Shown: positions 16,343 to 61,041, counted from the first letter of the stretch. The stretch is 64,000 nucleotides of DNA from Candidatus Moraniibacteriota bacterium (GCA_963775955.1 CAVZKT010000001.1:85437-149436), one strand, 5' to 3'. Translations and numbers: made by a program. The notes: generated by a model not told the origin, from the sequence alone.

Positions 16343-17756
<1,414 letters not shown>

Positions 17757-29852: not shown

Positions 29853-29948
29853 ACCCTGTTAGAAATTAAGCAGAATTTTTTGCGGGGAGATTTTAATTAT
29901 TTATGTAATTTTGCTGTTTTTAACAGACGGCAGAATTTCTAACGGGGT
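29853..29948. mobile_element. MITE-like element (ACCCTGTTAGAAATT ... GAATTTCTAACGGGGT) abutting folD
   Basis: Terminal inverted repeats of the CCCCGTTAGAA family. The right end overlaps the probable GTG start of folD (29947). Confidence 0.65.
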
Positions 29949-30787
29949 GAAACTACTTAAGGGCAGAAAAATTGCCGATAAAATTTTGGCGGACTTGAAA
30001 AGGGCCGTAAAAAAACAAAAAAGTAAGCCAGCGCTAGCGGTTGTTTTAGTTGGAAAAAATGGGGCGTCCGAAATATATGTTAAGCTAAAAAAACAAGCCG
30101 CCAAAAAAGTCGGCATCAATTTCTCTCTGCATCGATTTTTCAGAAATTCCGGTGAAAGAGAAATTGTCGGAAAAATAAAAGAACTCAATGGGGATAAAAA
30201 AATAAGCGGCATTATCGTCCAATTGCCGCTTCCGAAAAATTTGAGAATGCAGAAAATTATCAACGCCATTTCGCCCGGGAAAGACGCAGACGGATTCCAC
30301 CCGGAAAATTTGAAAAAATTTATGGCCGGGAAAAATGGAGTTGAACCAGTTTTTCCCAAGGCGATTATAAAAATCCTGGAAGCTATTCCAGAATCCGGGA
30401 TTTTGAGAAGGTAAAAAGGCGGCGATTATTACTAATTCCAAAGAATTTGGAAATACTATGCAAGCCGCGCTTAAACAAAAAGGAATTGAGGGACAGTATA
30501 TTCTACACAAAAATTATAAAAAAAGTTTATCCGCCATTGGGCGGACGGACATAGTAATTACTGCTGTTGGAAAACCAGATCTGATTACCAGTGACATGAT
30601 AAAAAAGAATGTGGTAATTATTGACGGAGGAATTGTCAAAAAAGGCAAAAAAGTTTTGGGCGATGTTGATTTTGAGTCAGTAAAAAATAAAGTTTCTTAC
30701 ATAACTCCCGTTCCCGGGGGCGTGGGCCCGGTAACTATTGCATGCCTCCTGGAAAATGTTTTTCTTTTAAGCAAAAAATCCCGGTAA
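29947..30787 (+). CDS. folD: Bifunctional methylenetetrahydrofolate dehydrogenase/cyclohydrolase, frame change near 30403-30407
   Basis: IIVQLPLPKN, GKDADGFHP, TPVPGGVGPVTIACLLEN. GTG start inferred from the alignment pattern MKLLKGRKIA. Confidence 0.88.
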
Positions 30788-32941: not shown

Positions 32942-34423
32942 TCACAGCACCCCTTCCCTTTTTAAAGCTTTCTTGATGTGGCTTTTAGCCAAGGTTGTGC
33001 GCACGAAGCGCAGCCAATCCTGGCTGGGTGATTTGTGCTCTTTAGTGGTGATAATTTCAATCACTTCTCCGTTTCTGATTTTATAGTCCAGAGGGACCAT
33101 TTTTCTGTTGGCTTTGGCGCCTACAGCCCGGTCTCCGATTTCGCTATGAACCTTATAGGCAAAATCAACTGGTGTGGCTTCTTCCGGAAGGTCAATAACA
33201 TCCCCATGCGGCGTAAAAGCAAAGATATGGTTTTTAAAAAAATCGATTTTTAACCCTTCAATAAATTCTTCATTGTCCTTTCCTAGTTCACCCTGCCATT
33301 CCTGAAGCTGGCGCACCCAGACTAGTTCTTCATCCGGTACTTTTTCTTTTTTGCCAAAACCAAAAAACGATTTCCACTTTTTGGATTGTTCGCTGTAAAT
33401 CCAGTGGGCGGCGATTCCAAACTCCGCTTCGTCATGCATCTTTTGAGTTCTAATCTGAACCTCCATTATTTTTCCTTCCGGTCCAAAAACTGTGGTATGA
33501 ATGGACTGGTAGCCATTGGGCTTGGGCAGTGATATGTAGTCTTTTATTCTCCCGACCAATGGGCGATATTTTTTGTGGACGATACCCAGAGTTTCATAGC
33601 AATCAGCAACTTCAGGAACAATGATTCTAATGCCGGCTAAATCATAAATTTTATTAATATCCATATCATGCCGCTGCAGTTTTAAAAAGAGCCGGTAGAT
33701 GCGCTTGGTGCGCCCGTAAATGTCGAGAACTTCAATTTTGGATTTTCCTAACTCTTTTTTAAGTTCGCCTACCATTTTTTCCAAATTCTTTTTGCGTATT
33801 CCAAATTCTTTTTCCTCCAGATTTTTTACAAGTTCGTAATTTTTCGGATCCAGGTATTTAAAAGCCAGATCTTCAAGGCGTCCTTTTATTTCTCCGATTC
33901 CCAAGCGGTTGGCGATAGGAACATAAACATCAAGAGTTTCGCGCGCAATGCGTGTTCGTTTTTCGGGCGGGAGCGCTCCCAGGGTTTCCATATTATGCAG
34001 GCGGTCAGCCAATTTTATAATCACCACGCGTATATCTTCCGCCATGGCCAAAAACATTTTGCGCAGATTTTCAAGATAAAGCTCTTCCTTGGTTCCGCGC
34101 AATTTTATTTTTCCCAGCTTTGTGACTCCATCAACCAAAAAAGCGATTTCACGGCCGAATTTATCTTCAATTTCTTTAAGGGTTACATTAGTGTCTTCGG
34201 GAATGTCATGCAAGAGTCCGACTGAAATAGTTTTTGAGCCCATGCCAATATGGGCGATGTTTAGCGCGGTATGCAGGGAATGCTGGATATATTCCTCGCC
34301 GGATTTCCTTTTTTGTCCCTTATGGGCGCGCTCGGCAAATTCAAAAGCGCTGCGAATCAGTTTTTCGCGTTCCGGCGTGTGGGCGCCCCGCAGGTTTTTT
34401 AACACGGTTTCAATGGTAATCAT
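32942..34423 (-). CDS. relA: Bifunctional (p)ppGpp synthetase/hydrolase (RelA/SpoT homologue)
   Basis: HD domain (HDIPEDT), synthetase domain (YQSIHTTV), and TGS (FTPHGDVIDLPEEATPVDFAY). Confidence 0.93.
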   Translation of the reverse strand: MITIETVLKNLRGAHTPEREKLIRSAFEFAERAHKGQKRKSGEEYIQHSLHTALNIAHIGMGSKTISVGLLHDIPEDTNVTLKEIEDKFGREIAFLVDGVTKLGKIKLRGTKEELYLENLRKMFLAMAEDIRVVIIKLADRLHNMETLGALPPEKRTRIARETLDVYVPIANRLGIGEIKGRLEDLAFKYLDPKNYELVKNLEEKEFGIRKKNLEKMVGELKKELGKSKIEVLDIYGRTKRIYRLFLKLQRHDMDINKIYDLAGIRIIVPEVADCYETLGIVHKKYRPLVGRIKDYISLPKPNGYQSIHTTVFGPEGKIMEVQIRTQKMHDEAEFGIAAHWIYSEQSKKWKSFFGFGKKEKVPDEELVWVRQLQEWQGELGKDNEEFIEGLKIDFFKNHIFAFTPHGDVIDLPEEATPVDFAYKVHSEIGDRAVGAKANRKMVPLDYKIRNGEVIEIITTKEHKSPSQDWLRFVRTTLAKSHIKKALKREGVL

Positions 34424-34428
34424 ATTTT

Positions 34429-36656
34429 TTACTTTTCAAACTTACACTCTTTGTTTGAACATTTGATTTTGCCTTTGGCGGCGAAGACAAGAAGGGACTT
34501 GCATTGCGGGCAGATTTCGCCGTTAGGTTTGTTCCAGAGCGCGAAGTCGCATTTGGGATAAGTATTGCAGCCGTAAAACAGACGGCCGCGTTTGGATTTT
34601 CGCTCAACAATATCCCCAACATTGCATTTAGGGCAAGTAATGCCCGTTTTCTTTTCAATTTTTTTAATGCCTTTGCATTGGGGATAATTGGAACAGCCGA
34701 GAAAAGTTCCAAATTTGCCGCGCTTCACCGCCATCGGCGCGCCGCAAATTTCGCAAATTTCGCCCCTATGTTCTTCATCCACTTTTTTTTCCGCGTCTGT
34801 TTTTTCCGTATGCTTGCAATTCGGATAGTTGGAGCAGGCGATGAATTTTCCAAAGCGCCCGAACTTCATGATCAAATCCCCGCCGCAATCGGGGCAGGCG
34901 CGGTCAAGTTTTTCCTGAAAATCTTCCTTTTTCACTTCTTTGGTTTTGGCCTCCAGATTTTTTTGGAAGGGCTTGTAAAATTCGCGGATTACCGGAACCC
35001 ACTTTCTTTTGCCTTCGGCAATTTCGTCAAAATCCATTTCAATGGTGGCGGTGAATTTAATATCCACTATTTCCGGAAAATGAGCGACCAAAAGATCATT
35101 GACTAAGGCGCCGATTTCCAGGGGATATAATCTTTTTTCTTCATTTTTATCGACATATTTTCTTTCAATAATAGTGGAAATTGTCGGCGCGTAAGTTGAC
35201 GGCCGGCCGATGCCGTTTTCTTCCATAACTTTTACCAGGGTGGCCTCATTGTAGCGCGGAGGCGCGGCTGTTTCTTTTTGGGCGGCCAGGATTCCGACCA
35301 AATCCAGATTTTCGCCGATTTTCATTTTTGGCAAAAGATTTTCGCCGTTGGCTTTGCCGTCCGTAGACTTTTGAGATAACCGTCAAATTTAACAGTGGAT
35401 CCATTAGCCTGCAATAAATATTTGTTTTTACCAGTAGCATCCACTTCGAGTTTTACTGAATCGAAAATTGCCGGCTGCATCTGGGAAGCAAGCATCTTTT
35501 TCCAGATGAGGCTGTATAATTTATATTCGCTTGGATCAATTTTGGCTTTCAGGTCATCCGGAGTTTTGTCGGGATAGGCCGGACGGATGGCCTCATGTGC
35601 TTCCTGGGCGCCTTTAGATTTGGTTTTATAAAATTTCGGATCAGGGAGAGCGTAATTTTTTCCGAATAACCGCGCGATGGTTTTTTGCGCGGAAAGCATT
35701 GACTCTAAAGAAAGATTCAGGCTGTCGGTGCGCATATAGGTGATATATCCTTTTTCGTAAAGTTTCTGCGCCTTGCTCATGGTGAACTTGGCGGAAAATC
35801 CCAGATTGCTGATAGCCGCCTGCTGCAGGGAAGAAGTGGTGAAAGGAGGGGAGGGATAACGCAGAGTTTCTTTTTCAGTTATATTACTGACTTTGAATTT
35901 AGCGCGCTTAAGATCGGCCACAATTTCGTCAGCCTTTTTCTGGCTGTCGATTAAAGTCTTTTTAATTTTATAATCGCCGGCGAATAATTTTAAGATTGCG
36001 GCTTGTTCAATTTTCTCACCGTTTTTTTCCGTGAGATTGGCCGTAAAATCCTGCTTTGAGCTCTGAACTTTGAACTTTGAATTTATAGCGTAGTATTTTT
36101 CAGACTTGAATTTTTCGATTTCTCTTTCTCTTTCAACGATCAGGCGCAGAGCTACCGATTGCACGCGCCCGGCGGAAAGTCCGCGGCGGATTTTTTTCCA
36201 GAGGAACGGGGAAAGTTCAAAACCGACCAGACGGTCCAAAATTCTTCTGGCTTGCTGGGCGTCCACCAGATTAAGATCAATCGCGCGCGGATTGTCTAAT
36301 GCTTTTTCAATGGCGCTTTTGGTAATTTCGTGAAAAACAATGCGCTTTGCTTCTTTGGGATTTAAATCCAAGGCTGAAACCAAATGCCAGGAAATAGCTT
36401 CTCCTTCGCGGTCTTCGTCAGTGGCGAGAATCACGTCTTCAGATTTTTTGGCCAGTTCTTTGAGTTCCTCTACTCTCTCGGCGGATTTGGCCGGAATAAC
36501 ATATTCCGGCGCAAAGTTATTCTCAATATCAATGCCCATTTTTTTGGCGGGCAGATCGCGGATATGGCCGTAGGAAGATTTAACGGTAAAAGCCTTCCCT
36601 AAAAATTTGGAAATAGTTTTGGCTTTAGTGGGGGACTCAACTATAACTAGCTTCAT
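34429..36656 (-). CDS. topA: DNA topoisomerase I, frame change near 35322-35334
   Basis: KLVIVESPTKAKTI, TOPRIM DEDREGE, and four C-terminal Cys4 zinc ribbons. Start at MKLVIVES (36656); an alternative is 36677. Confidence 0.92.
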
Positions 36657-36728
36657 GGAGCATGGAACATGGAACATGGAACAATTTTTCTTTAAATTGT
36701 TTTATGTTCTATGTTATGTGTTATGTGA
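36654..36728. repeat. Hairpin built from CATGGAA words (left) and GTTCTATG/GTTATGTG words (right)
   Basis: CATGGAGCATGGAACATGGAACATGGAAC ... GTTCTATGTTATGTGTTATGTG. It overlaps the topA start and the dprA stop. Confidence 0.75.
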
Positions 36729-44449: not shown

Positions 44450-44478
44450 TTGACAAAATAAGAATCACATGATAATAT
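44450..44478 (+). promoter_or_regulatory. Sigma70-type promoter (TTGACA-17-TAATAT)
   Basis: Upstream of ORF 44534 (RBS AAAAGGAGGG, GTG start). Confidence 0.55.
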
Positions 44479-44533
44479 TTTCTGATTTGCATATTAACAA
44501 AAGAAAAGAAAAAATATAAAAAGGAGGGATCTA

Positions 44534-44833
44534 GTGGAGAGTTATTTAATTACCGAAATAAAAAAATTAGCGGAAGAGCTCGTTAAAAATTTGAAACAAA
44601 AAAGAGTGGATGAAGTTGAAATATCAGCGGACATCAATTTTTTTATAATGCCGCTATGCGAGCTATGGGGCCATGGTGTGGCGGTAAAAATAGAGAAAAA
44701 AGTGTTCGTTTATATTATTGTCGAAAAAGCTTGTTCCCGCATCTATATCAGAAAAAGCAAACTTTATGAAAAATATCCTTGGGAATATAGAAAAACAGTA
44801 GAGGAGATTATGCAAAAATATGATATTTTTTAA
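44534..44833 (+). CDS. Hypothetical protein (99 aa)
   Basis: ORF with strong RBS, own promoter and own terminator. No motif recognised. Confidence 0.55.
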   Translation: MESYLITEIKKLAEELVKNLKQKRVDEVEISADINFFIMPLCELWGHGVAVKIEKKVFVYIIVEKACSRIYIRKSKLYEKYPWEYRKTVEEIMQKYDIF

Positions 44834-44851
44834 AAGTCCGAAAAAAATAGC

Positions 44852-44882
44852 AGGGCCGAAGATAACTTCGGCCCTTTGTTTT
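44852..44882 (+). terminator. Rho-independent terminator
   Basis: AGGGCCGAAG-ATAA-CTTCGGCCCT then TTTGTTTT. A second hairpin TCCCGG-CAC-CCGGGA plus T-run follows at about 44915-44940. Confidence 0.8.
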
Positions 44883-44955
44883 AATAATACGACAAAGATG
44901 CAAATTTCCCGGCACCCGGGATTTTTCTTTTTAAATTTGCTTTTTACCCGCTTAT

Positions 44956-44976
44956 TTGCTACGATAAAATACTTTG
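44956..44976 (+). promoter_or_regulatory. Shared 21-nt motif TTGCTACGATAAAATACTTTG (copy 1)
   Basis: Identical to the copy at 48541-48561 and 20/21 to the copy at 46467-46487. Followed by a GATCTTTGACA block. 51 nt upstream of ATG 45027. Confidence 0.7.
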
Positions 44977-45026
44977 AAAAGAGCGGATCTTTGACAATTT
45001 AAATTTGAAAAAGAAAGGAAGGCAAT

Positions 45027-45641
45027 ATGAATATTTTTTTGTTTCTCTATCCAATTATTCCTTATATGGATTTTCTGGTTAAAGAGTATGATTATCCTTT
45101 TAAGAGAAAACGTTGCGATGTTAATTGGTTAAATAATATCATAGAAAAACGTTATCGGAGCAAAAAATTTCAAATTGCATGGGTATATTTTTCGGAAAAT
45201 GGCAAAGTCTCGCCTGATATTACAATGCATTACGGTCTGATTAAAAAGAAAACAGACGATTTAAATATTAATGCAGGGTTGAGTTTTATGCGGCATATGC
45301 AGGAAAAAATATATTCTGATCCAGCATGCATTATTGGCCAGCTTCCACAGCCAATTGAAAATCTTGTAGTCGGCGGATTTCATCGTTCTGATTGCGTTGA
45401 CCGTGTTGCAGAATACGCGCATAAGAAGGGAATCTCAGTGGCAGTTGACGAAGACACAACAGAATTTTTCTTTGTAATTACTTCGCTTCATGGGAAAATA
45501 CCCCTTAGAAGAAATACTCGTTTCTTACCAAAATATTTAATTCGGTTTGCTTATGATAAGGCGGGCGGAAAATCTCTAATTTTGGAACATATAAAGAAAC
45601 ATCGCGAAGAACGTCCATGGCTTGCGCAAATCAGATTGTAA
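45027..45641 (+). CDS. Divergent isochorismatase-like (cysteine hydrolase fold) protein
   Basis: LVVGGFHRSDCVDRVAEYAHKKGISVAVDEDTT matches the G-x5-CV...G..V.V.ED pattern of the family. The N-terminal catalytic Asp is not evident. Confidence 0.45.
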   Translation: MNIFLFLYPIIPYMDFLVKEYDYPFKRKRCDVNWLNNIIEKRYRSKKFQIAWVYFSENGKVSPDITMHYGLIKKKTDDLNINAGLSFMRHMQEKIYSDPACIIGQLPQPIENLVVGGFHRSDCVDRVAEYAHKKGISVAVDEDTTEFFFVITSLHGKIPLRRNTRFLPKYLIRFAYDKAGGKSLILEHIKKHREERPWLAQIRL

Positions 45642-45659
45642 TACGAATTTAAAATATTC

Positions 45660-45689
45660 CTGGCAGGGAACCAACCTGCCAGTTTTTTT
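45660..45689 (+). terminator. Rho-independent terminator
   Basis: CTGGCAGG-GAACCAA-CCTGCCAG followed by T7. Confidence 0.85.
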
Positions 45690-45701
45690 ATGACAAAATT
45701 T

Positions 45702-45723
45702 AATACGTATTATAATACGTATT
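45702..45723. promoter_or_regulatory. Tandem perfect palindromes AATACGTATT-AT-AATACGTATT (candidate operator)
   Basis: Read directly, followed by a half-site AATAC. Located where a -35 element would sit for the -10 at 45747. Confidence 0.55.
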
Positions 45724-45743
45724 TTAATACTTACCCTTTTTAG

Positions 45744-45752
45744 TGGTATAAT
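45744..45752 (+). promoter_or_regulatory. Extended -10 (TGGTATAAT), 6 nt upstream of ATG 45759 (leaderless geometry)
   Basis: TATAAT at 45747-45752. No room for an SD. Confidence 0.55.
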
Positions 45753-45758
45753 TATTTT

Positions 45759-46415
45759 ATGAGTCTGAAGAATATTCTGCCTAAAAAAGAATATAGGATT
45801 TTGAAAAAATTAAAGACTCCGGCTAGGATCCAGGATTTTTTAGATACCATGCCGATGAATTTTGAAGAAGATGACGACACTTGTTTTTCTCCCAGGACAG
45901 TTTTGGAAAAAGGAACTTGCCATTGCATCGAGGGCGCCATATTAGCCGCCTTGGCCTTGCGAGTGAACGGCTACCCGCCGCTTCTTTTGGATTTGACGGC
46001 AGATAAAACTGATTATGACCATGTGGTGGCTGTTTTCAAAATTGATGGCAAGTGGGGAGCTATTTCCAAAACCAATCATTCTGTTTTGCGCTATCGCGAA
46101 CCAATTTACAGCTCCATCCGGGAATTGGCCATGAGCTATTTCCACGATTATGTGAATATTAACACTGGTAAGAAAACTTTGCGCAGTTTCGCGCGGCCGG
46201 TAAATTTGAAGCGTTTTGATTCTTTGGGCTGGATGACAACCAAGGAAGAAGTTTTTTATATCCCCGCGCACTTGGCTGACGTTAAGCACTACAAAATTTT
46301 GAATCGGAAACAAATTCGGAATTTACGTCCAGCCGATGCGGTTGAGGTCAAAGGCGGCAGTATTCAGGAGTGGCAAGACTCGCAGGGCAGCGCGCCCAAG
46401 TATCCATCCTGCTGA
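45759..46415 (+). CDS. Transglutaminase-like (papain-fold) cysteine peptidase family protein
   Basis: GTCHCIEGAILAALALRVNGYP (Cys), DHVVAVFKIDGKWGAISKTN (His/Asn). Confidence 0.55.
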   Translation: MSLKNILPKKEYRILKKLKTPARIQDFLDTMPMNFEEDDDTCFSPRTVLEKGTCHCIEGAILAALALRVNGYPPLLLDLTADKTDYDHVVAVFKIDGKWGAISKTNHSVLRYREPIYSSIRELAMSYFHDYVNINTGKKTLRSFARPVNLKRFDSLGWMTTKEEVFYIPAHLADVKHYKILNRKQIRNLRPADAVEVKGGSIQEWQDSQGSAPKYPSC

Positions 46416-46466
46416 AAAAAAGTTTACATGCGGGAAGCTGTTTGCACTTGCCTTTCTGGGTAATAC

Positions 46467-46487
46467 TTGCTACGATTAAATACTTTG
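46467..46487 (+). promoter_or_regulatory. Shared 21-nt motif TTGCTACGATTAAATACTTTG (copy 2)
   Basis: 20/21 identity to copies 1 and 3. A GGTCTTTAACA block lies 18 nt downstream. Confidence 0.7.
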
Positions 46488-46612
46488 AAATGGAGGGCAA
46501 AGCTGGTCTTTAACATCTGAATATATATAAATCCAAAATTTTTGGAAAATGGATGGAATATGAAACTCACGGAAAATCAGCCGTAAAAATTCAAAAAAGA
46601 AAGGAGATTAGT

Positions 46613-46921
46613 ATGGCAAAGGAAAAAATGATAATTTATCTGGAAACGCTAGGACTATGCGAACATTGCGGTCAGTTAATTACTTTACAAGACATGCCGG
46701 CGGATTCCATGGATGCTGAATGGAAATGTCCGAAGTGTGAAAAAATACTTGGCAATAATACATTCGGATACGAAAAAGTTGGAAAAGAGGGGAACCGGGA
46801 AAAATATGAGAAAACGCGGTGGGTTGGTCCTGGAAAAAAATGGGTTGAACAAAAACCAACTAAAGATTTTGATTTGGGCAACTGGCACATTATGATAAAT
46901 GTTCCACGCCATTATTTTTGA
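46613..46921 (+). CDS. Small zinc-ribbon protein
   Basis: CEHCGQ...CPKCEK. ATG 46613 follows AAAGGAG; an alternative upstream start is 46553. Confidence 0.55.
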   Translation: MAKEKMIIYLETLGLCEHCGQLITLQDMPADSMDAEWKCPKCEKILGNNTFGYEKVGKEGNREKYEKTRWVGPGKKWVEQKPTKDFDLGNWHIMINVPRHYF

Positions 46922-46951
46922 AAAAATCAGTACCATAAAAGGAGATAGAAT

Positions 46952-48232
46952 ATGAAAGTTTTAGTGATTGGAGGCGGAGGAAGAGAACACGCGATTTGCG
47001 AAAAAGTAGCCGAGTCCAATTTTGCGGATATATGTTTTTGGGCGCCGGGAAACAAAACGCTGGATGCGAGGGGTAAAATCAAACCAATTAATATCCCCGT
47101 AAAGGACACTGAAAGCCTGATTAGGTTTTCCAAAGACAATGGCATTGACCTTATAATTCCCGGTCCGGAAGATCCGTTATGCAATGGCTTTGTTAATAAA
47201 GCGAGAGAAGCAGGGATAAAAATTTTCGGGCCGACCAAGGAGGCAGCTATTCTTGAGGGATCTAAAGTATTTGCAAAACGATTCATGAAAAGGAACGGAA
47301 TCCCAACAGCCGCTTTTAAGGTTTTTGATAACGCGCCGAATGCAATCAACTATGCCTATCTGGCAAAATATCCTCTGGTTATCAAGGCCGATGGTCTGGC
47401 TGCCGGGAAGGGCGTTTACATTTGCGAATCAACTGATGAAGCAATTGGTGCCATAACGGAAATAATGATAATCCGCAAATATGGGAAGGCGGGGGACAAG
47501 ATTGTTATTGAAGATTTTATTCCTGGCGAGGAAGCATCGCACATTGAAATGGTTGATGTTAAGGGGAATGATCGTCCGTTAGCCTCATCCCAGGATCACA
47601 AGCGTGTGCTTGACGGCGACAAGGGACCGAACACCGGCGGAATGGGCGCTTATTCGCCGGCACCGATAGTAACTCCCGAGGTGGAAGAAAAAATTCTTTC
47701 CCGAATTGTTTATCCGACAATCAAAGGAATGAAAAAAGAAGGGAGGCCATATGTCGGGTTTCTCTATTTCGGACTAATGATTGATGAAAATGGAAATCCG
47801 CAGCTGCTGGAATACAATGTGCGGCTGGGAAACCCGGAAACTCAAGCAATATTGCCCAGAATGAAAACCGATTTCGTATGGCTTGTAAACCAAGCCCTTA
47901 TCGGCAACCTGAACAGTGTCAGGATCAAATGGGATCCTCGTCCGGCCGTGTGTGTGGTTATGGCTTCTGAAGGATATCCGGCTTCTTCCACAAAAGGCGC
48001 GGTTATCAACGGAATTAAGTACGCTAAAAAAATTGGCGCTAGCGTATATTTTGCGGGAACTACCCTAAATGAAAAGGGACAAATCGTCACGGCCGGCGGC
48101 AGGATTCTCAATATAACCGCCAAGGGAAATAATTTCGCCGAAGCCCAGCGCAATGCTTACGCGGCGGTCAAAGCAATCCGTTGCGATAAGCTTTTCTATA
48201 GGACTGATATCGCCAACCGGGCGATAATATAG
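46952..48232 (+). CDS. purD: Phosphoribosylamine--glycine ligase
   Basis: MKVLVIGGGGREHAI, ATP-grasp core, PNTGGMGAYSP, RLGNPE. Confidence 0.9.
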   Translation: MKVLVIGGGGREHAICEKVAESNFADICFWAPGNKTLDARGKIKPINIPVKDTESLIRFSKDNGIDLIIPGPEDPLCNGFVNKAREAGIKIFGPTKEAAILEGSKVFAKRFMKRNGIPTAAFKVFDNAPNAINYAYLAKYPLVIKADGLAAGKGVYICESTDEAIGAITEIMIIRKYGKAGDKIVIEDFIPGEEASHIEMVDVKGNDRPLASSQDHKRVLDGDKGPNTGGMGAYSPAPIVTPEVEEKILSRIVYPTIKGMKKEGRPYVGFLYFGLMIDENGNPQLLEYNVRLGNPETQAILPRMKTDFVWLVNQALIGNLNSVRIKWDPRPAVCVVMASEGYPASSTKGAVINGIKYAKKIGASVYFAGTTLNEKGQIVTAGGRILNITAKGNNFAEAQRNAYAAVKAIRCDKLFYRTDIANRAII

Positions 48233-48250
48233 ATATGAGGTCAAAACAAT

Positions 48251-48305
48251 GAGGCAACATTAATTGCGCCAGCGAGCGTGAAAAAGTGTTGCCTCTTTTA
48301 TTTTT
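48251..48305 (+). terminator. Terminator-like hairpin after purD
   Basis: GAGGCAACA...TGTTGCCTC (27-nt loop) followed by a T-rich tract. Confidence 0.55.
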
Positions 48306-48325
48306 AGGGCAATATTTTTTGGAGC

Positions 48326-48363
48326 AGTGTGATTTTTTCCGCATATGCGGAAAAAATCACACT
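48326..48363. repeat. 38-nt perfect palindrome AGTGTGATTTTTTCCGCAT|ATGCGGAAAAAATCACACT
   Basis: Read directly. Confidence 0.95.
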
Positions 48364-48388
48364 TGGTAAATAATTATTTCTTTTATGT

Positions 48389-48420
48389 CTGTTATTTTCT
48401 GCGTAAGCAAAAAATAACAG
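48389..48420. repeat. Hairpin CTGTTATTTTCTGC-GTAA-GCAAAAAATAACAG
   Basis: 14-bp stem with one mismatch and a GTAA loop. Confidence 0.9.
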
Positions 48421-48457
48421 GTTTTTGAGATTTTTGTTTTAAGAAATTATTCAGTGG

Positions 48458-48485
48458 CGATGTAAGTAATTAATTACTTACATCG
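48458..48485. repeat. 28-nt perfect palindrome CGATGTAAGTAATT|AATTACTTACATCG
   Basis: Read directly. Confidence 0.95.
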
Positions 48486-48540
48486 AATTTTTATTACAGC
48501 ATAATTTTAAATTTCCGCAAGTTGCGGATTGGGCGGAAAA

Positions 48541-48561
48541 TTGCTACGATAAAATACTTTG
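48541..48561 (+). promoter_or_regulatory. Shared 21-nt motif TTGCTACGATAAAATACTTTG (copy 3)
   Basis: Identical to copy 1. Overlaps the hairpin CTTTGCG-AAGT-CGCAAAG. A GATCTTTAAAA block lies 15 nt downstream. Confidence 0.7.
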
Positions 48562-48652
48562 CGAAGTCGCAAAGCGATCTTTAAAAACTGAAAAAGATTA
48601 GCGTAAAAACAATAAAAATCGGCTAAAAAAACCGGAAAGGAAAGGGTGATAT

Positions 48653-49037
48653 ATGCTAGTTCTTGCGATTGATGACGATTTACATTTTCAAAGAATTTTC
48701 AAAGAAGAATTTGAAGACAGAGGGCATGAAGTTTTGCTGGCCATAGACGGTCAGGAAGCTTTGGAAATTTATGAGCGAGAACAGAATCGCATTGATGTTG
48801 TGACTATTGATATTATACTGCCCGATATAGACGGCATCCGGCTGCTTAGGAGGTTTGTAGAAATAAACAAAAAGATTCCGAAGATTATGCTGAGCGCCTA
48901 CGACTACCGGGATGACTTTGCGATTTGGGCATCGGATGCATATATAGTTAAGAGCAGTGATTTCGAAGAAATCATTATCACGGTCAGAAAAACTGGCTGC
49001 GGGATATGGGGAGCAACGAGCAAAAAACAAACTGTAA
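48653..49037 (+). CDS. Stand-alone response-regulator receiver domain protein, probable frame change in the A-run near 48988
   Basis: LAIDDD, DIILPDIDG and IMLSAY motifs. The listed ORF runs to 49129 with an implausible C/W/R-rich tail. Shifting one base gives ...VRKLAAGYGEQRAKNKL* ending at TAA 49035-49037, just before the next RBS. Confidence 0.75.
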
Positions 49038-49050
49038 AAGGAGGAATAAG

Positions 49051-49368
49051 ATGGAGAAGAGGAAAGATCAATATGTTCCAGTTTCTCGGGAAATGCACGA
49101 CTTTTTGTTGCAGATGTATGATGCAGTAATGACAAAGTCTCCAGAGGAAAGTAAATTGTGGTGTGAAAGGCTCAAAGGAGCCCTGGAAGGATGGCGGGCT
49201 GCGAGAATGGGCGGAATGTTTCCTGTATTTCTGATCAGTGAGTTCCACAAAGATATCACCCATGTCATGGGAGTAGTCCATAAAAAGGTGAAAGTTGAAA
49301 AACTGGCTGAGCATCAGAAAGTCTTTACTTTCAATATGGCTACTCTGCAAAACGAGTTCAGGGATTAA
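49051..49368 (+). CDS. Hypothetical protein (105 aa)
   Basis: ATG 49051 is preceded by AAAGGAGGAATAAG. No motif recognised. Confidence 0.55.
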   Translation: MEKRKDQYVPVSREMHDFLLQMYDAVMTKSPEESKLWCERLKGALEGWRAARMGGMFPVFLISEFHKDITHVMGVVHKKVKVEKLAEHQKVFTFNMATLQNEFRD

Positions 49369-49386
49369 TAGTTGTGAAATATAGTC

Positions 49387-49418
49387 GGCCGTGGTCTTTG
49401 TGATCACGGCCTTTTTTT
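49387..49418 (+). terminator. Rho-independent terminator
   Basis: GGCCGTGGTC-TTTGT-GATCACGGCC followed by T7. Confidence 0.85.
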
Positions 49419-49419
49419 G

Positions 49420-49428
49420 TGCTATAAT
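49420..49428 (+). promoter_or_regulatory. Extended -10 (TGCTATAAT), 6 nt upstream of the ybeY ATG (leaderless geometry)
   Basis: TATAAT at 49423-49428, ATG at 49435. Confidence 0.5.
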
Positions 49429-49434
49429 TTATCT

Positions 49435-49886
49435 ATGCCGATTAATATTGAATTCAACAACACCACCAAAAACCCGATTCGGAAAAAGTTTTTGGAAGAC
49501 GCGGTGAAAAAAACGCTCAAGGCCAGCGGGCTGGATTTTTTGGCGCGGAAAAGCATAACTTTAAGCATTGCGGTAGTCAGCGCGCGGGAAATAAAAAGGC
49601 TGAATAAAATTTATCGCAAGACTGACGCGGTGACGGATGTGTTGTCATTCGCGGAATATAAAAATGTGGAAGCCCTAAGGGAGGCTATGGACAAACCGCC
49701 CAAGGGCGAGTCGGCGGAATATTTCTCGGCGAGCTGATTTTGTGCTATACTGATATCAGGGAATATGCCCGAAAAAACAAGATTGGTCTTGCGCAAGAAT
49801 TAGCCAATGTTGTTTCTCATGGTGTTCTGCACCTTTTGGGAATGAAGCATGGGAAAAAAATGTTTGAAATACAAAAAAGGTTATAA
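49435..49886 (+). CDS. ybeY: Endoribonuclease YbeY, frame change near 49725
   Basis: TDVLSF in the first frame, and HGVLHLLGMKHG (H-x3-H-x5-H) in the second. Confidence 0.85.
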
Positions 49887-49933
49887 ATTCATCCCATGGA
49901 GTAATTTTTCCTCCGGAAAAATAATTTCGTTCT

Positions 49934-51609: not shown

Positions 51610-51854
51610 AAAAGGGGTAAAACTTGATTTTCCGTAACGCATTTGACAGGATAGACAGCCATATGATAGATTTAGATACTGAGAAAGCGGGGATTCTTTA
51701 GGTGAAAATCAGGCGTTTTTCAAAACCAAAACCAAAAGTCTAAAACAAAAAATATTAAAAACTGATTGATAGAAACAGGTTTTTGATTTTTATTTTTAGG
51801 CTTATTTTTTTTGAATTTTTTAAATTTTCAAGTATATTAAAGAAATAGTAAGGC

Positions 51855-52007
51855 ATCCCAGTACCGATTCCGACTGAGATTTGCCAAATATAATAATTTT
51901 TCTGCGGAATCGCCTGATGGCTTAGTCAGGGTATAATTTAAAGATTTAATTTAGAATCGGTACGGGATGCTCATTTTTGCAGCTTCTCGCTATCGCTCAA
52001 GACAAAA
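51855..52007 (+). promoter_or_regulatory. Conserved structured leader/repeat (copy B) abutting the ftsZ start codon
   Basis: Arms are ATCCCAGTACCGATTC / GAATCGGTACGGGAT. Same conserved blocks as copy A (28391-28547). An internal GGGTATAAT is present. Confidence 0.65.
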
Positions 52008-53214
52008 ATGGCAGAAATCAAACCACCCGTAGAAACATTCGCGCGCATTAAAGTCGTGGGCGTTGGCGGTTCTGGAGGAAGCGCGATCAGCCGGATGATT
52101 GAATCAAAACTGCGCGGCGTTGAATTCGTGGCGATCAATACTGACGCGCAGGCCCTGCATCACAATAAAGCCACGGAAAAAGTGCATATCGGAAAAAATC
52201 TGACCAAGGGACTGGGGGCCGGGATGAATCCGGATATCGGACGGCAGGCGGCCGAAGAGAACCGCGAAGAAATTCAGGAGGTGCTTAAAGGGCTCGGATA
52301 TGGTTTTTGTCACTTGCGGATTAGGCGGCGGAACCGGGACAGGCGCGGCGCCGATTGTGGCGGAAACTGCCAAAGAACTGGGAGCTCTCACGGTCGCGGT
52401 GGTAACTAAGCCGTTTGCTTTTGAAGGCGCGCAAAGAAGGGCGATTGCGGAAGAGGGACTGGAAAATTTGCGCGAACGAGTAGATACTCTCATTATTATT
52501 CCCAACGACAAGCTGCTGCAGATTATCGACAAGAAAACGACGCTTATAAATTCCTTTCAAGATTGTGGATGATGTCCTGCGCCAGGGCGTGCAGGGGATT
52601 TCGGATCTTATTACCAAGCCAGGAGTGGTGAATGTTGACTTTGCCGACGTGAAAGCGATTATGGCAAGACAGCGGGTCAGCTCTTATGGGGATTGGCGTG
52701 GGACCGGGGGAAAATCGCGCGGCGGACGCGGCCAAGGCGGCCATCAACAGCCCGCTTTTGGAACTTTCCATTGACGGCGCCAAAGGCGTGCTTTTCAATG
52801 TCAGCGGGATCCAATGATCTGACAATGCTGGAAATCAATGAAGCGGCCAATATTATCACTGAATCCATTGACCCGAACGCCAAAGTCATTTTCGGCGCGG
52901 TGGTGGAGGAAACTATCAGAAAAGGGGAGGTGCAGATTACAGTAGTCGCGACCGGATTTGACGCGGAAAGAGTGAAGGAATCTCCAATAGAAAAAATGTC
53001 GCGGCTTTCCATTGAGCGCGGTAAAAATCAGGAAAGCGAAGGAAAAGAAAAGTCAAAAATTACTTTTCCGGCGCAGGGCGAGCACAAAATGATTATCGAG
53101 GAAAAGGTCCAGCCGAAACCGCAAAGAACTTTCACGCAGGTGGAAAAATCTTTAGAGGATGAGGATGACGAACTGGAAATCCCGGCGTTCATCCGGAGGA
53201 AGATGGGGAAGTAG
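52008..53214 (+). CDS. ftsZ: Cell division protein FtsZ, 4 frame changes
   Basis: [42 protein letters not shown], and C-terminal [12 protein letters not shown]. Junctions near 52295, 52560, 52665 and 52812 each look like one extra base in a GG/GGG or AA run. Confidence 0.93.
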
Positions 53215-53404: not shown

Positions 53405-54070
53405 ATGGAACAATTAACATCAAAGCAAAATACGGTTTTGGAAACTATCCGGGAAATTATTGAGGCGGAAAAAGAAAATCCGACGACTTATCGCGTGCAT
53501 AAATTTTTGGAAGAAAGGGGGGTGGAAGTCGGCAGCCTCAAGGGAACAGTCCAAGTCATTGAAGCGCTGGAGAAAAAAGATCTGCTTAAGCGCGATAAAA
53601 GCAAAAAAATATATCTGGTGGAAAATGATAATTATGCCAACCTGGGAAATATTTTTTCCATTCCGATGTATGGCCTGGCTTCCTGTGGAGAAGCGCTGGC
53701 TTATGCCGAAGGCAATGTGGATGGATATCTCCAAATTTCCGAAAGCCTTTTCAGAAAGGCCGATCCGGCCAAACTTTTTGCCGTAAAAGCTTTGGGTGAT
53801 TCCATGGACAAAGAGGAAATCGGCGACGGTGATTATGTAGTTTTTGAAAAATGCGAACTGGACCAGGATTTTGAAAATAAAATAGTGGTGGCAGTCATCA
53901 ACGGCATGGCGACGATCAAGAGATATAAAAAACTCAAGCACGGCATCATCGGACTTTTTCCGCAATCGCGAAATCCCATCCACCAGCCGATTTATTTGGA
54001 TGAATCAGACTCCATTCTCATTGCCGGAATTTTCCGCAAAGTCCTGCCGGTGGCGTATGTGAGCTTGTAA
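53405..54070 (+). CDS. lexA: LexA-type repressor (wHTH plus S24 peptidase)
   Basis: N-terminal LTSKQNTVLETIRE wHTH, an ASCGEALAYAEG cleavage-site region, GDSM (Ser) and ATIKRY (Lys). Confidence 0.88.
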   Translation: MEQLTSKQNTVLETIREIIEAEKENPTTYRVHKFLEERGVEVGSLKGTVQVIEALEKKDLLKRDKSKKIYLVENDNYANLGNIFSIPMYGLASCGEALAYAEGNVDGYLQISESLFRKADPAKLFAVKALGDSMDKEEIGDGDYVVFEKCELDQDFENKIVVAVINGMATIKRYKKLKHGIIGLFPQSRNPIHQPIYLDESDSILIAGIFRKVLPVAYVSL

Positions 54071-57467: not shown

Positions 57468-57920
57468 ATGGATTGTCCTTTTTGCAATCATACGGAAACC
57501 AAAGTAGTTGATTCGCGCGAAACGAATGAAGGAAAAATTACCCGTCGGAGAAGGGAATGCGAAAAATGCGGTGCTCGCTTCAGCACTTATGAAGAAGTGG
57601 AGCTTTTGCGCCTCACCGTCGTGAAAAAAAACGGAGAAAAAGTGGACTATGACAAGACGAAAATAGAAACCGGAATAAGAAGAGCGCTGGTCAAGAGGCC
57701 GGTTTCTGAAGAAAAAATTGCCAAACTGGTGGGCGACATTGAATATGAAATTCAATCGCTGGAAAAACCGGAGGTGACCACGCGGGAAATAGGCAGAATT
57801 ATACTTAAAAAACTGAAAGAGCTGGATGAAGTGGCTTATGTCCGGTTCGCCAGCGTCTACAAATCATTTGGAAGCATCGAGAGTTTCAAAAAGGAACTGG
57901 ACATGCTGGAGGATAAGTAA
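57468..57920 (+). CDS. nrdR: Transcriptional repressor NrdR
   Basis: MDCPFCNHTETKVVDSRE...RRRRECEKCGARFSTYE zinc ribbon plus ATP-cone. Confidence 0.95.
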   Translation: MDCPFCNHTETKVVDSRETNEGKITRRRRECEKCGARFSTYEEVELLRLTVVKKNGEKVDYDKTKIETGIRRALVKRPVSEEKIAKLVGDIEYEIQSLEKPEVTTREIGRIILKKLKELDEVAYVRFASVYKSFGSIESFKKELDMLEDK

Positions 57921-57966
57921 GGTTAATTTGTTTTCTAATATTTAAATAATTCGGGGGAACAAGATT

Positions 57967-60138
57967 ATGGTAGGTAAATACAAAAATAAAATTACTAAAG
58001 TCATCAAAAGAAGCGGGAACGTCGTGGAGCTTGATCCGGAAAAAATTACCAAAGCGGTAATAAAAGCGTTTGCAGCCACCGGCGAAGGCAGTAAGGCGGA
58101 CGCCCAAAAAGTCAGCGACAAAGTCGTCCAGCTTCTCAATAAAAATTACAAAAAAGGCTATATTCCGGAAATTGAAGAAATCCAGGATTTAGTGGAAAGA
58201 GTGCTGATGATTTTGGATTTTGAGGAAACAGCCAAGGCCTACATTCTTTATCGCGAACAGCACCGGAAAATCCGCGAAACCGAAGAAACCTTGAAAGAGG
58301 CGGTGGATTTGGTGGATAAATATATCCAGGAAATTGACTGGAAAGTGAAAGAAAATGCCAATATGGCCTATTCCCTCCAGGGACTTAATAATTATATTTC
58401 TTCCATTGTCAGTTCCAAATATTGGATGAACAAGGTTTACACCAAAGAAATCCGCGAAGCGCACGAAAGCGGAGATTTTCATATCCATGATCTGCAGCTG
58501 GTGGCGGCTTATTGCTGCGGCTGGGATTTGCAGGATCTTATCCGCCGGGGTTTTACGGGAGTTCCCGGAAAAGTTGCCTGCAAGCCGGCCAAACATTTTG
58601 GTTCAATTTTGGGGCAGATGGTGAATTTTATCTATACTCTTCAGGGGGAAGTGGCCGGCGCGCAAGCTTTTTCCAATTTTGACACCTTGCTGGCTCCGTT
58701 TGTCCGTTATGATAAATTGACTTATGAAAAAGTAAAACAGGAGATCCAGTCTTTTGTTTTTAATATGAATGTTTCCACGCGCGTCGGATTTCAAACGCCC
58801 TTTTCCAATATCACCATGGACATCAACGCGCCCAAGACCCTGGCCAAGGAAACAGTGATAATCGGCGGAGTTCCGCAAAAAGAAACCTACGGAGAATTTC
58901 AGGAAGAAATGAATATGATCAATCGCGCTTTTGCCGAAGTGATGACCGAAGGCGATGCCAGCGGGCGAATTTTTACTTTTCCGATTCCGACTTATAACAT
59001 CGGAAAAGATTTTGACTGGAATGACGAAAAATTCAATCCGATTTGGGAAATGACGGCCAAATATGGCATTCCCTATTTTGCCAATTTCATAAATTCCGAT
59101 ATGGATCCGGATGACGCGCGTTCCATGTGTTGCCGGCTGCGGCTGGATAATCGCGAACTGCACAAGCGCGGCGGCGGACTTTTTGGCGCGAATCCTCTGA
59201 CCGGATCGGTCGGCGTGGTTACGATAAATATGCCGCGCCTGGGCTATCTGCCAAAAGCAAAAAAGATTTTTTTGCGCAGCTTAGACAAGCTGATGGATCT
59301 GGCCAAAGAAAGTTTGGAAACCAAAAGAAAAATAATGGAAACATTGACGGAAAAAGGATTATATCCATATTCCAAATTTTATCTGGATGCCATCAAGATG
59401 CGCCGGGGCGAATATTGGGCCAATCATTTTTCAACTATCGGCCTGGTCGGCATGAATGAAGCGCTGTTGAATTTGATTGGAAAAGATATAACTTCAAAAG
59501 CCGGGCAAAAATTGGCGGAGGAAATTTTATCGCATATGCGCGACAGGATAATCAAGTATCAGGAAGAAACCGGCAATATGTATAATTTGGAAGCCACGCC
59601 GGCCGAAGGAACATCCTACCGCCTGGCGCGCAAAGACCGGCTGCGATTTCCGGAAATGATTTTTGCCAACGATGAAGCGGTCAAGCATAAGGGGGCGGAA
59701 CCGTATTATACCAATTCCTCGCAGCTGCCGGTGCATTTTACGGAAGATATTTTTGAAGCGCTGGATCTGCAGGAGGATTTGCAGACAAAATATACCGGCG
59801 GGACGGTTTTGCATGGATTTCTGGGAGAGCGGATTTGGGACATTGAAACCACAAAAAAATTGGTCAGAAAAATCGCCGAAAGCTATACGTTGCCGTATTT
59901 CACGCTGACTCCGACTTTCAGCATCTGTCCGGTGCACGGCTATATCGCCGGCGAACATTACACTTGCCCGAAATGCGTAGTGGAACAAAAAACTGAAGTT
60001 TACTCCCGCGTAGTCGGCTATATCCGGCCGGTTGAACAATGGAACAGGGGCAAGCAGGCCGAATTCAACGACCGCAAAGAGTATGTGGTAAAGCAAAAAC
60101 GAAAAGCCGGACAGAAACAAAAACAGCTGGCGTTGTAA
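57967..60138 (+). CDS. nrdD: Anaerobic ribonucleoside-triphosphate reductase (class III)
   Basis: 723 aa. N-terminal ATP-cone, C-terminal Zn site CPVHG...CPKC, and the glycyl-radical motif SRVVGYIRP. Confidence 0.95.
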   Translation: MVGKYKNKITKVIKRSGNVVELDPEKITKAVIKAFAATGEGSKADAQKVSDKVVQLLNKNYKKGYIPEIEEIQDLVERVLMILDFEETAKAYILYREQHRKIRETEETLKEAVDLVDKYIQEIDWKVKENANMAYSLQGLNNYISSIVSSKYWMNKVYTKEIREAHESGDFHIHDLQLVAAYCCGWDLQDLIRRGFTGVPGKVACKPAKHFGSILGQMVNFIYTLQGEVAGAQAFSNFDTLLAPFVRYDKLTYEKVKQEIQSFVFNMNVSTRVGFQTPFSNITMDINAPKTLAKETVIIGGVPQKETYGEFQEEMNMINRAFAEVMTEGDASGRIFTFPIPTYNIGKDFDWNDEKFNPIWEMTAKYGIPYFANFINSDMDPDDARSMCCRLRLDNRELHKRGGGLFGANPLTGSVGVVTINMPRLGYLPKAKKIFLRSLDKLMDLAKESLETKRKIMETLTEKGLYPYSKFYLDAIKMRRGEYWANHFSTIGLVGMNEALLNLIGKDITSKAGQKLAEEILSHMRDRIIKYQEETGNMYNLEATPAEGTSYRLARKDRLRFPEMIFANDEAVKHKGAEPYYTNSSQLPVHFTEDIFEALDLQEDLQTKYTGGTVLHGFLGERIWDIETTKKLVRKIAESYTLPYFTLTPTFSICPVHGYIAGEHYTCPKCVVEQKTEVYSRVVGYIRPVEQWNRGKQAEFNDRKEYVVKQKRKAGQKQKQLAL

Positions 60139-60204
60139 GGTTTAGGAAAAAACAAAGAGATAAAGGGGCGGCTTTGGTTTTTAAATCAGGTCGCCCTTAA
60201 TTTA

Positions 60205-60336
60205 AAAAATCCAAAATTCGAAATCACAAATTCCAAACAAATTACAATGTTCAAAAAACAAAACCCAAAACATTTTGAATTTTGAAAATTATAATTTTGA
60301 ATTTATTTAGGATTTGTAATTTTGAATTTGTAATTT
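60205..60336. repeat. Word-hairpin element abutting the nrdG start (same family as 42036-42160)
   Basis: AATCCAAAATTCGAAATCACAAATTCCAAAC ... GATTTGTAATTTTGAATTTGTAATTTT. The shared core contains ATTATAAT. Confidence 0.8.
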
Positions 60337-60337
60337 T

Positions 60338-61041
60338 ATGGTGTTGGGCGGTTACCAAAAACTTACCCTCATTGATTATCCCGGAAAAATTGCCACCACG
60401 GTTTTTACGGTTGGCTGCAGTTTTCGCTGTCCGTTTTGCCATAATCCGGAATTAGTTAAACATGGAACATGGAACATGGAACAAAGAACAACGATGGAAA
60501 AAGAGTTTTTTGAGTTTTTGAAAAAAAGCAAAGGCAAGCTGGAAGGCGTGTGCATTACTGGAGGCGAGCCGGCGATCCAGCCTGATTTGGAAGAATTTAT
60601 CAAAAAAATAAAAAAGCTGGGTTTTTTGGTAAAGCTGGATACTAATGGCAGCCGGCCGGATGTGCTCAAGAAACTTATGGATAAAAAACTTCTGGATTTT
60701 GTGGCAATGGACATAAAAAGCAGCTCGAAAAATTATATTAAAACGACAGGATTAAAAGTGGATATCAAAAGGATAAAATTAAGCGTTAATTTGATAATGA
60801 AACAGCAAACTGCCGTATGAATTTCAGAACTACGGTTGTGCCCGGCATCCACACGGAAAAAGATTTTGAGGAAATCGCCAAATGGATCAAAGGCGCCAAG
60901 ACTTATTATCTCCAGGAATACCGCGAAATTAAAATTCTGGATCCCAAGCTTAAGAAAAAAACCAAAGGCAAAACCATTGATCTGGAAAAAATTAAGAAAA
61001 AAATCGAGAAAAATTTCGGGAAGATGGGAATCAGGAGGTAA
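60338..61041 (+). CDS. nrdG: Anaerobic RNR activating enzyme (radical SAM), 2 frame changes near 60800-60825
   Basis: CSFRCPFCHN cluster, ITGGEP. YEFRTTVVPG is readable only after removing one A (AAA run) and one base in ATTTCAG. Confidence 0.88.
60461..60482. repeat. CATGGAA x3 array inside nrdG
   Basis: The 22-mer CATGGAACATGGAACATGGAAC is identical to 36663-36684. Translated as HGTWNMEQ. Confidence 0.9.

Follow-up and report, generated by a model that had tools for sequence, protein, structure and literature searches.

A probable promoter-leader control module shared by the units of a remodelled purine island in a Parcubacteria/Moranbacteria clade

The DNA considered here is a stretch of 64,000 nucleotides from a Candidatus Moraniibacteriota bacterium (GCA_963775955.1, CAVZKT010000001.1:85437-149436; below, the window), in which a block between yqeY and ybeY (44450-49420) holds three transcription units headed by one and the same compound element: a promoter core, a short hairpin (P1) at the predicted 5' end of the mRNA, and a conserved box (box 2) immediately downstream of it. 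We consider it probable that this element is a promoter-leader module of a purine island, co-regulating the island's units in a single Parcubacteria/Moranbacteria clade, where it precedes each predicted transcription unit of the island. A first-pass annotation, made from the sequence alone, had described the same sites as an upstream motif marking a small regulon or island. The idea of a small regulon stands, in that the element marks a small clustered set, while the motif is not an operator lying upstream, but a promoter core running into the mRNA 5' end and followed by an RNA hairpin.

The core is a 21-mer, TTGCTACGATWAAATACTTTG, found on the + strand at 44956-44976, 46467-46487 and 48541-48561, exactly where it had been reported, and nowhere else in the window at up to three mismatches, with 0.00 copies expected by chance (100 shuffles); these repeats, extending to 27 nt, form the largest direct-repeat family of the block. 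When the three copies are aligned with 18 from other contigs, all 21 possess an invariant TTGCnn as the -35 element, a spacer of 16-17 nt and an extended -10 of the form TGC-TA(C/G)GAT, within which T-12, A-11 and T-7 never change, and each module continues into an A-rich discriminator. The 21-mer itself can be read as the extended -10, the -10, the discriminator, the probable start (A16, where the spacing, together with the Y-1/R+1 rule, would place it) and the opening five bases of the transcript. The module has the sequence features of a sigma-70-type extended -10 promoter and is predicted to be active as one. At least nine copies have a terminator upstream whose T-run comes within 1-13 nt of the TTGC, leaving no space for another promoter. 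Conservation goes far beyond the hexamers, with positions -16 to +5 nearly invariant at every base across lineages whose purD proteins are about 55% identical, and with a non-consensus C/G-G retained within the -10 among the copies. The remaining extended -10 promoters of the window are of the TTGACA...TGnTATAAT type, and TGCTACGAT is confined to the three modules, so that the three units do share a dedicated element and not a generic promoter, as had been suggested. Likewise, in the 328-kb contig of a relative, the exact 20-mer pattern is found at two sites only, both within its island.

The transcribed part of the module is equally distinctive. From C17 of the 21-mer onward, near +2 if the start is as predicted and exactly 7 nt past the -10 hexamer, the RNA can form the P1 stem-loop, whose 5' strand is CUUU with up to four further bases and whose 3' strand is complementary to it; one copy, at position 925 of locus L034, is the exception and has no P1 (loci from other contigs carry L numbers here). 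The additional pairs differ from copy to copy (GCG/CGC, AUC/GAU, AC/GU, GCA/UGC, GCCG/CGGC), and a second subfamily (L036, L044), with the promoter TTGCTATAAT, has a CCCU/AGGG stem at the same distance from its -10 and keeps both hairpin and box 2. In the P1 alignment 91.9% of cells are paired, with 14 compensatory cells, a result equalled by 0 of 500 shuffles and compared with no more than 60% in slid controls; fitting this alignment with a covariance model gives structure an advantage, and an independent table yields identical pairs. Searched against 173 kb of loci, a covariance model built on 12 copies recovers 20 at E<0.08; in the window it matches the three modules only. P1 is thus a predicted helix supported by compensatory changes, that is, a structured leader RNA. 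Its loop varies from 3 to 47 nt, and GGAG or GGAGG is present in 12 of about 22 loops; a perfect AAGGAGG, resembling a Shine-Dalgarno (SD) sequence and distant from any start codon, is found in many.

Box 2, G-N-U-Y-UUU-R-ACAAU, lies 1-3 nt 3' of P1 whatever the loop length. In the three units it corresponds to the second motif, GRTCTTTRAMA, that had been noted after each 21-mer and that is indeed present at 44986 (GATCTTTGACA), 46505 (GGTCTTTAACA) and 48576 (GATCTTTAAAA), at distances of 9, 17 and 14 nt, and not at the 10-18 nt originally given. All seven occurrences of the exact 12-mer TCTTTGACAATT in the 173 kb of loci are at the place and in the orientation of box 2. Between the predicted start and the box lie 6 to 64 nt, with no helical phasing, which argues that box 2 is positioned in the RNA and not on the DNA.

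All three modules are on the + strand. Module 1 (44937-44999) has the -35 TTGCTT at 44937-44942, the extended -10 at 44957-44965 and a predicted start at A44971, followed by P1 (CUUU-GAAA-AGAG, 44972-44983) and box 2 (GATCTTTGACAATT, 44986-44999), its leader being matched by the covariance model over 44971-45001 (E 0.0013). Module 2 (46448-46517) has its -35, TTGCCT, at 46448-46453, P1 (CUUUG/CAAAG, 46483-46502) with a ten-nucleotide loop (AAAUGGAGGG) and box 2 (GGTCTTTAACATC, 46505-46517), with a model match over 46482-46520 (E 8.5e-7). Module 3 (48522-48588) starts with TTGCGG at 48522-48527 and includes P1 (CUUUGCG-AAGU-CGCAAAG, 48557-48574) and box 2 (GATCTTTAAAAAC, 48576-48588), matched over 48556-48591 (E 2.9e-5).

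Several other readings of these same bases were tried and dropped. TAAAAT was ruled out as the -10 because its second position, the would-be A-11, varies between A, T and G, and a sigma-28-like -10 (CGATAA) is broken by the TAGGAT variants and has no TAAA at -35. Box 2 does not serve as the -35 of a second promoter, there being no consistent -10 at 16-18 nt. An upstream open reading frame (ORF) from UUG to the UGA of box 2 fails, its frame not being conserved and the G of UUG varying, and P1 plus the U-run would make at best a weak intrinsic terminator, with AU-rich stems, a linker of 2-3 nt and a U-run that is often interrupted, though it might act as a pause signal.

Relatives were sought by an exact-pattern scan of one genome per species, by a metagenome scan, and through homologues of purD and of a 105-aa protein of the block. 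The one-genome-per-species scan gave two metagenome-assembled genomes of the Candidate Phyla Radiation, 'Parcubacteria group bacterium' JBAZPT010000002.1 and Candidatus Moranbacteria MFRX01000037.1, plus one chance match inside a gene. The metagenome scan gave 27 loci, about half with the full module, the others being coding-region coincidences without a -35. The database matches rejected as coding-region false positives without a TTGC -35 are L001, L004-L007, L010-L013, L020-L023, L026, L027 and L030, and a phage origin was likewise set aside, as two matches on viral contigs lack the -35, the hairpin and box 2 and are chance matches. Overall, 27 units are known on 13 contigs of Parcubacteria and Moranbacteria. 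Purine genes (purD, purE, purC, purN, purL, guaA) are driven by 14 of the 24 units with visible cargo, and by 9 of 16 among the loci found by motif alone; the element is preferentially upstream of purine-pathway genes. Its cargo is purD in the window, L014, L016, L024 and L028, purE-purD-purN in L015, guaA with or without purN in L009, L024 and L034, purL in L009 and L034, purN in L034 and L044, and a phosphoribosyltransferase (PRTase) gene with purE and purC in L002.

The same relatives also change the view of the block itself, which had been described as a free-standing accessory island with an isolated purD. In relatives guaA-purN-purL-purD-purM lie between yqeY and ybeY, equipped with the same modules, and the block is therefore best read as a remodelled purine island. 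The most complete example is L034, with the order yqeY, guaA, a truncated remnant of a transglutaminase-like gene, purN, purL, purD, a purM-like gene, ybeY and dgkA, and with modules before guaA, purN and purL. Other examples are L046 (purD-purM-ybeY), L036 (yqeY ... purD-ybeY), and L033, in which purD, purM fragments, ybeY, dgkA, ftsA and ftsZ continue on to nrdR-nrdD, like in the window. The earlier remark that no other purine gene is nearby is correct for the window, where tblastn with the relatives' proteins matched only purD, guaA, purN, purL, purM, purE, purC and the PRTase gene being absent. The junctions tell a similar story. A terminator, CTGGCAGGGAACCAACCTGCCAG, follows guaA in L024, L034 and L044 and follows a 204-aa gene in the window (45660-45682, + strand), and from this conservation of the guaA terminator it follows that the 204-aa gene sits between a module and a terminator corresponding to those on either side of guaA in relatives. 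Junction 48472-48642, which leads into the receiver gene, shares 89% identity with the one before PRTase-purE-purC in L002. For the purD terminator, identity is 94% with a terminator that lies before a module in L002 and 85% with a terminator in L034. As yqeY is only 78% identical to that of L002, versus 89-94% for junctions with differing cargo, the junctions are better conserved than the genes they frame. The transglutaminase-like gene is also a conserved island member (about 90% amino acid identity in L002). Judged by gene order and junctions, the block is the clade's purine island in remodelled form, with purD as the single pur gene that the window retains; synteny extends to purD, to the transglutaminase-like gene and to the junction modules, and variation is limited to the remaining cargo.

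We propose that transcription would start at the A just before P1, so that the mRNA would bear a 5'-terminal hairpin. Such hairpins shield mRNA from decay that depends on the 5' end, as known from work in E. coli and Bacillus. The single-stranded box 2 and the invariant -12 to +5 segment would be read by one trans-acting factor; a reader of this kind is argued for by the invariance of both elements, at a purD protein identity of about 55%, which exceeds the need of a housekeeping promoter. Through this factor the units of the island would be regulated together, purine supply being the most plausible signal, and control would act on the DNA core, on box 2 in the RNA, or on both. In the window, purD keeps its own module, a cysteine-hydrolase-like gene occupies the slot of guaA, and the receiver and 105-aa pair is placed behind the junction that drives PRTase-purE-purC in L002; the 204-aa gene and the receiver/105-aa pair would in this way inherit a purine-type control. 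A more specific proposal is that the 5' hairpin with the UCUUUGACAAU box is a new, Parcubacteria-specific, purine-responsive leader RNA binding a ligand or a protein, with the junctions acting as recombination slots for ORFan genes; this version we put forward tentatively, with a rather small chance of being right.

A number of observations weigh against a co-regulating module. Both the start site and the 5'-terminal place of P1 are predictions. No regulator gene was found, in the window or conserved beside the modules. Ten units drive unrelated small ORFan genes, and the link with purines could be historical, not functional. A different promoter is found at purD of L034, L036 and L046. Copies outside the island are possible, the scans having covered less than whole genomes. 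Finally, the whole leaders fold no better than shuffles (z = 0.24, -0.77 and -1.40), and a second hairpin, proposed to pair the U-rich half of box 2 with the downstream A-run around the loop GACAAUU, was rejected as no better than chance (4.76 versus 4.51 +/- 0.20, reached by 204 of 2000 shuffles).

The alternatives each explain a part of the module. One of them places everything at the DNA level, with a transcription factor, repressor or activator, bound to -16..+5 (TTGCTASGATNAAAKACTTT), and with the hairpin and box 2 being incidental. The near-invariance of this segment among diverged lineages, the retained non-consensus C/G-G, and a conservation beyond what sigma-70 contacts need all speak for it, but the P1 covariation and the constant spacing of P1 and box would go unexplained, as would the variable, unphased distance from start to box. 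Moreover, the TTGCTATAAT subfamilies keep the hairpin and box 2 behind a different start sequence, the site has no dyad or direct-repeat symmetry, and no candidate factor gene is conserved nearby; we regard such an operator as unlikely. The opposite view, of P1 and the UCUUUGACAAU box as a small aptamer for a purine-pathway ligand controlling translation or stability, is unlikely as well. It would account for a leader RNA repeated before each unit and before pur genes, for the covariation of P1, for a box fixed at the RNA level, and for the RNA part outlasting the 21-mer in subfamilies with a TATAAT promoter, and it may gain from the L002 loop AGGAU, complementary to AUCCU of the box, with a pseudoknot possibly forming in one variant between the box and the GGAGG-rich P1 loop. 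Such a pseudoknot cannot be universal, because the loops vary from GAAA or AAGU up to 47 nt. Only one short helix is supported, the L034 copy at 925 lacks it, a search for alternative structures gave neither a terminator/antiterminator nor a consistent SD-sequestering fold, and neither the invariant -10 nor the discriminator is explained; even with the cut-off relaxed to E<=10 or E<=1, no Rfam family matched the modules, be it in the window or in 10 related loci.

A further possibility is that there is no specific regulation, the promoter being strong and constitutive and its 5' hairpin, with an SD-like GGAGG in many of the loops, stabilising the mRNA; the module would have spread within the island by duplication and junction recombination. 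The start of P1 at the predicted position +2 in the two subfamilies, the frequency of GGAG or GGAGG in the loops, the junctions more conserved than their cargo and the commonness of ORFan cargo are all as expected from it. A promoter of this kind would be expected to drift toward or around consensus, while more than 20 copies, from different lineages, hold to the same TACGAT and discriminator; the conservation of box 2 is left without an explanation, and such a strong restriction to one pathway island is unexpected for a general-purpose promoter, making this possibility decidedly improbable. Least credible of all, and very improbable indeed, is the suggestion of the first-pass annotation that the orphan receiver, perhaps with the 105-aa protein, is a dedicated, autoregulating regulator acting on the three units via the motif. 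It is true that the motif precedes the receiver gene itself, that the phospho-acceptor residues look intact, and that the 105-aa family recurs beside pur genes and ybeY. The receiver, though, has no output or DNA-binding domain, as judged from domain searches, and no receiver is present beside the modules on 12 other contigs, the 105-aa homologue of L031 being preceded by two small ORFs instead; the model of the 105-aa protein shows a plain helical bundle, in which no helix-turn-helix (HTH) was recognised and to which nothing in the PDB is significantly similar. Compared with all of these, the promoter-leader module remains the reading that we prefer.

As to the layout of the block, its flanks are yqeY (PF09424, 166 bits) on one side and ybeY and dgkA on the other, its GC content of 36-46% is like that of the rest of the window, and the genes of the window, as read by eye, are those to be expected in a small genome of Parcubacteria type. 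All genes of the block are on the + strand. The first, for a 99-aa protein (44534-44833), has an ordinary promoter, TTGACA-17-TGATAATAT (44450-44478), outside the control of the motif, and is followed by terminators at 44852-44875 and 44907-44921. Behind module 1 is the 204-aa gene (45027-45641), and after it the gene for the transglutaminase-like protein (218 aa, 45759-46415), with its own TGGTATAAT promoter (45724-45752), likewise outside motif control. The module 2 operon consists of a Zn-ribbon gene (102 aa with two CxxC pairs, 46613-46921) and purD, encoding phosphoribosylamine--glycine ligase (46952-48232; TIGR00877, 503 bits), and is closed by the purD terminator (48243-48303), a GAGGCAACA...TGTTGCCTC stem with a T-run. 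Module 3 is followed by the stand-alone receiver gene (48653-49129; PF00072, 61 bits) and the 105-aa gene (49051-49368), with a terminator at 49387-49411. The claim that every unit has its own terminator is accordingly correct for the 99-aa, 204-aa, purD and 105-aa genes and fails for the transglutaminase-like gene, as none was found between its stop (46415) and the next -35 (46448). The gene labels fared similarly: yqeY, purD, the receiver, ybeY and dgkA are confirmed, while the Zn-ribbon and transglutaminase-like labels (the latter at E 0.004-0.011) rest on sub-threshold Pfam matches.

The isochorismatase-like label of the 204-aa protein, which has no Pfam match, is supported by its predicted fold. 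The AlphaFold2 (AF2) model (pLDDT 86.5) has isochorismatase-type cysteine hydrolases for all of its top 50 PDB matches (E 8e-5, TM 0.42-0.46), and in a family of 11 the stretches GGFHxxDCVD and VDEDTT are invariant, with the conserved Cys in the expected G-x-x-x-x-x-C-V nucleophile context; of the classical Asp-Lys-Cys triad, no invariant Lys is seen in the family. The model supports, at a modest TM, a distant isochorismatase-like cysteine hydrolase fold. This family is not always in a purine context, one homologue (L038) following a tRNA gene. In the receiver, the acidic pocket, the phospho-acceptor Asp, the Ser and the Lys look intact on reading. The tail of its ORF overlaps the 105-aa gene by 79 nt in another frame, and this C-terminal tail may be a frameshift artefact. 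The start of the 105-aa gene at 49051 is taken to be real, because homologues conserve its N-terminus; the source annotation apparently shortened the protein to 79 aa (P0003). Some 25 clusters make up the 105-aa family, whose members are stand-alone proteins roughly 105-117 aa long; homologues are found after purN-purL-purD in L031 and directly before ybeY in L039, and a role for them as a DNA-binding output domain was dropped, having no structural or homology support. Beyond orthologues, no homology was found among the small ORFs of the islands.

Side observations can be added for the island and its surroundings. The terminator hairpin CTGGCAGGGAAC(C)CAACCTGCCAG is conserved nearly base for base in the window (45660-45682), L016, L024 (9761), L034 (2652) and L044 (1180), with differing flanking genes. 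At purD of L034 (8440-8500), L036 (6790-6830) and L046 (1110-1165), a TTGACA-17-TACAAT or TATATT promoter lies behind arrays of ATAGTATATACTAT-like palindromes, which look like a separate operator for another regulator. The transglutaminase-like gene's promoter is preceded by two tandem copies of a AATACGTATT palindrome (region 45700-45752), and its orthologue in L002 keeps the -10 and has no such palindromes. The 300-nt spacer between purD and module 3 contains three long palindromes (48311-48378, 48390-48421 and 48458-48485, for example GTGTGATTTTTTCCGCATATGCGGAAAAAATCACAC and CGATGTAAGTAATTAATTACTTACATCG), of which the first and the third are partly conserved in L002 (5254-5293; 5431 onward). 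PRTase-fold paralogues of 236-247 aa lie within the purine islands of L002 (4452-5162 and 5598-6341) and L029 (3932-4648); they are best scored as PyrE-like, below family cut-offs, with TIGR01743 at only E 3e-4 and over the PRT fold, and they might substitute for an absent purine PRTase step, or might have a regulatory role. Single frame changes appear to split core genes of the window, such as ybeY (49435-49888, with its HGVLHLLGMKH motif in another frame) and glycyl-tRNA synthetase-like, atpD, folD, topA and ftsZ genes (in the regions 2164-3601, 16521-17756, 29911-30787, 34429-36677 and 51700-53214), and similar splits are seen in L033, where purM is in pieces and nrdD is divided into 568+84 aa. 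Indel errors in the assemblies, not true pseudogenes, probably account for this. Translations of the window, read by eye, include a RelA/SpoT-like protein (32942-34423, - strand), a LexA-like repressor with an adjoining Bro-N-like protein (53405-54070) and nrdR-nrdD-nrdG (57468-60820), and no sigma factor or PurR-like gene was seen among them.

Gene regulation in the Patescibacteria (Candidate Phyla Radiation) is very little known, and a 2024 review of the group is silent on promoters and transcription factors, and brings up riboswitches only for their potential use in engineering. Our literature searches found no description of the module. On present evidence it is specific to one clade and new as a control module of a purine island, and there are signs of gene replacement in conserved regulatory slots. 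It would define a native promoter and 5' leader for these bacteria, provides a testable cis element for locating the regulator, and could serve genetic tools as a native expression signal. It also shows that some Parcubacteria keep a co-ordinately organised island for de novo purine synthesis, and about ten ORFan families, among them those of the 204-aa hydrolase and the 105-aa protein, become candidates for a function linked to purines. If the reading of the slots is true, ORFans that replace purine genes would instantly gain purine control, a simple way of regulon rewiring in ultra-small genomes.

Known systems share single traits with the module. One example is the PurR/PurBox system of Firmicutes, with the PurR of B. 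subtilis responding to phosphoribosyl pyrophosphate (PRPP), in which a short cis element is repeated at promoters of purine and GMP synthesis. The sequences are unrelated, and the module, in contrast, overlaps the -10 and the start and continues into a transcribed hairpin; the PurBox consensus AWWWCCGAACWWT is not enriched, with 88 matches versus 80 expected and none in the three modules, and the consensus of the E. coli PurR operator, ACGCAAACGTTTGCGT, gave 0 matches at up to three mismatches. No PurR homologue is seen, the PRTase paralogues of L002 and L029 being PyrE-like. Another example is the purine riboswitches (guanine/adenine, RF00167; ZTP/pfl, RF01750; PRPP, ykkC-2b), which are also 5' leaders with covarying pairing before pur genes. 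The module differs in being one short hairpin with a single-stranded box, for which no supported junction or pseudoknot and no expression platform were found. PyrR-binding leaders of the Bacillus pyr operon, too, place a leader hairpin before successive nucleotide-biosynthesis units, and the islands of L002 and L029 do encode PRTase-fold proteins, but in the module no terminator/antiterminator was found, its loop sequence is unconserved, and the window has no PRTase-like gene. As to integron cassette arrays, no recombinase-like ORF is present among the island flanks (by reading), and the repeated element is 5' of the genes and carries a promoter. Stem-loops at the 5' terminus and STAB-SD elements stabilise mRNAs such as ompA of E. 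coli, aprE and ermC of B. subtilis and cry3A of B. thuringiensis. The likeness to these is in a hairpin 1-2 nt from the predicted 5' end and in the many loops with an SD-like AAGGAGG; they are, however, gene-specific and have no adjoining conserved box, while the hairpin of the module is tied to an invariant promoter and to UCUUUGACAAU and is repeated across the island. The module resembles a regulon signal of the PurR/PurBox type joined to a 5' stabiliser hairpin, and is a member of neither class.

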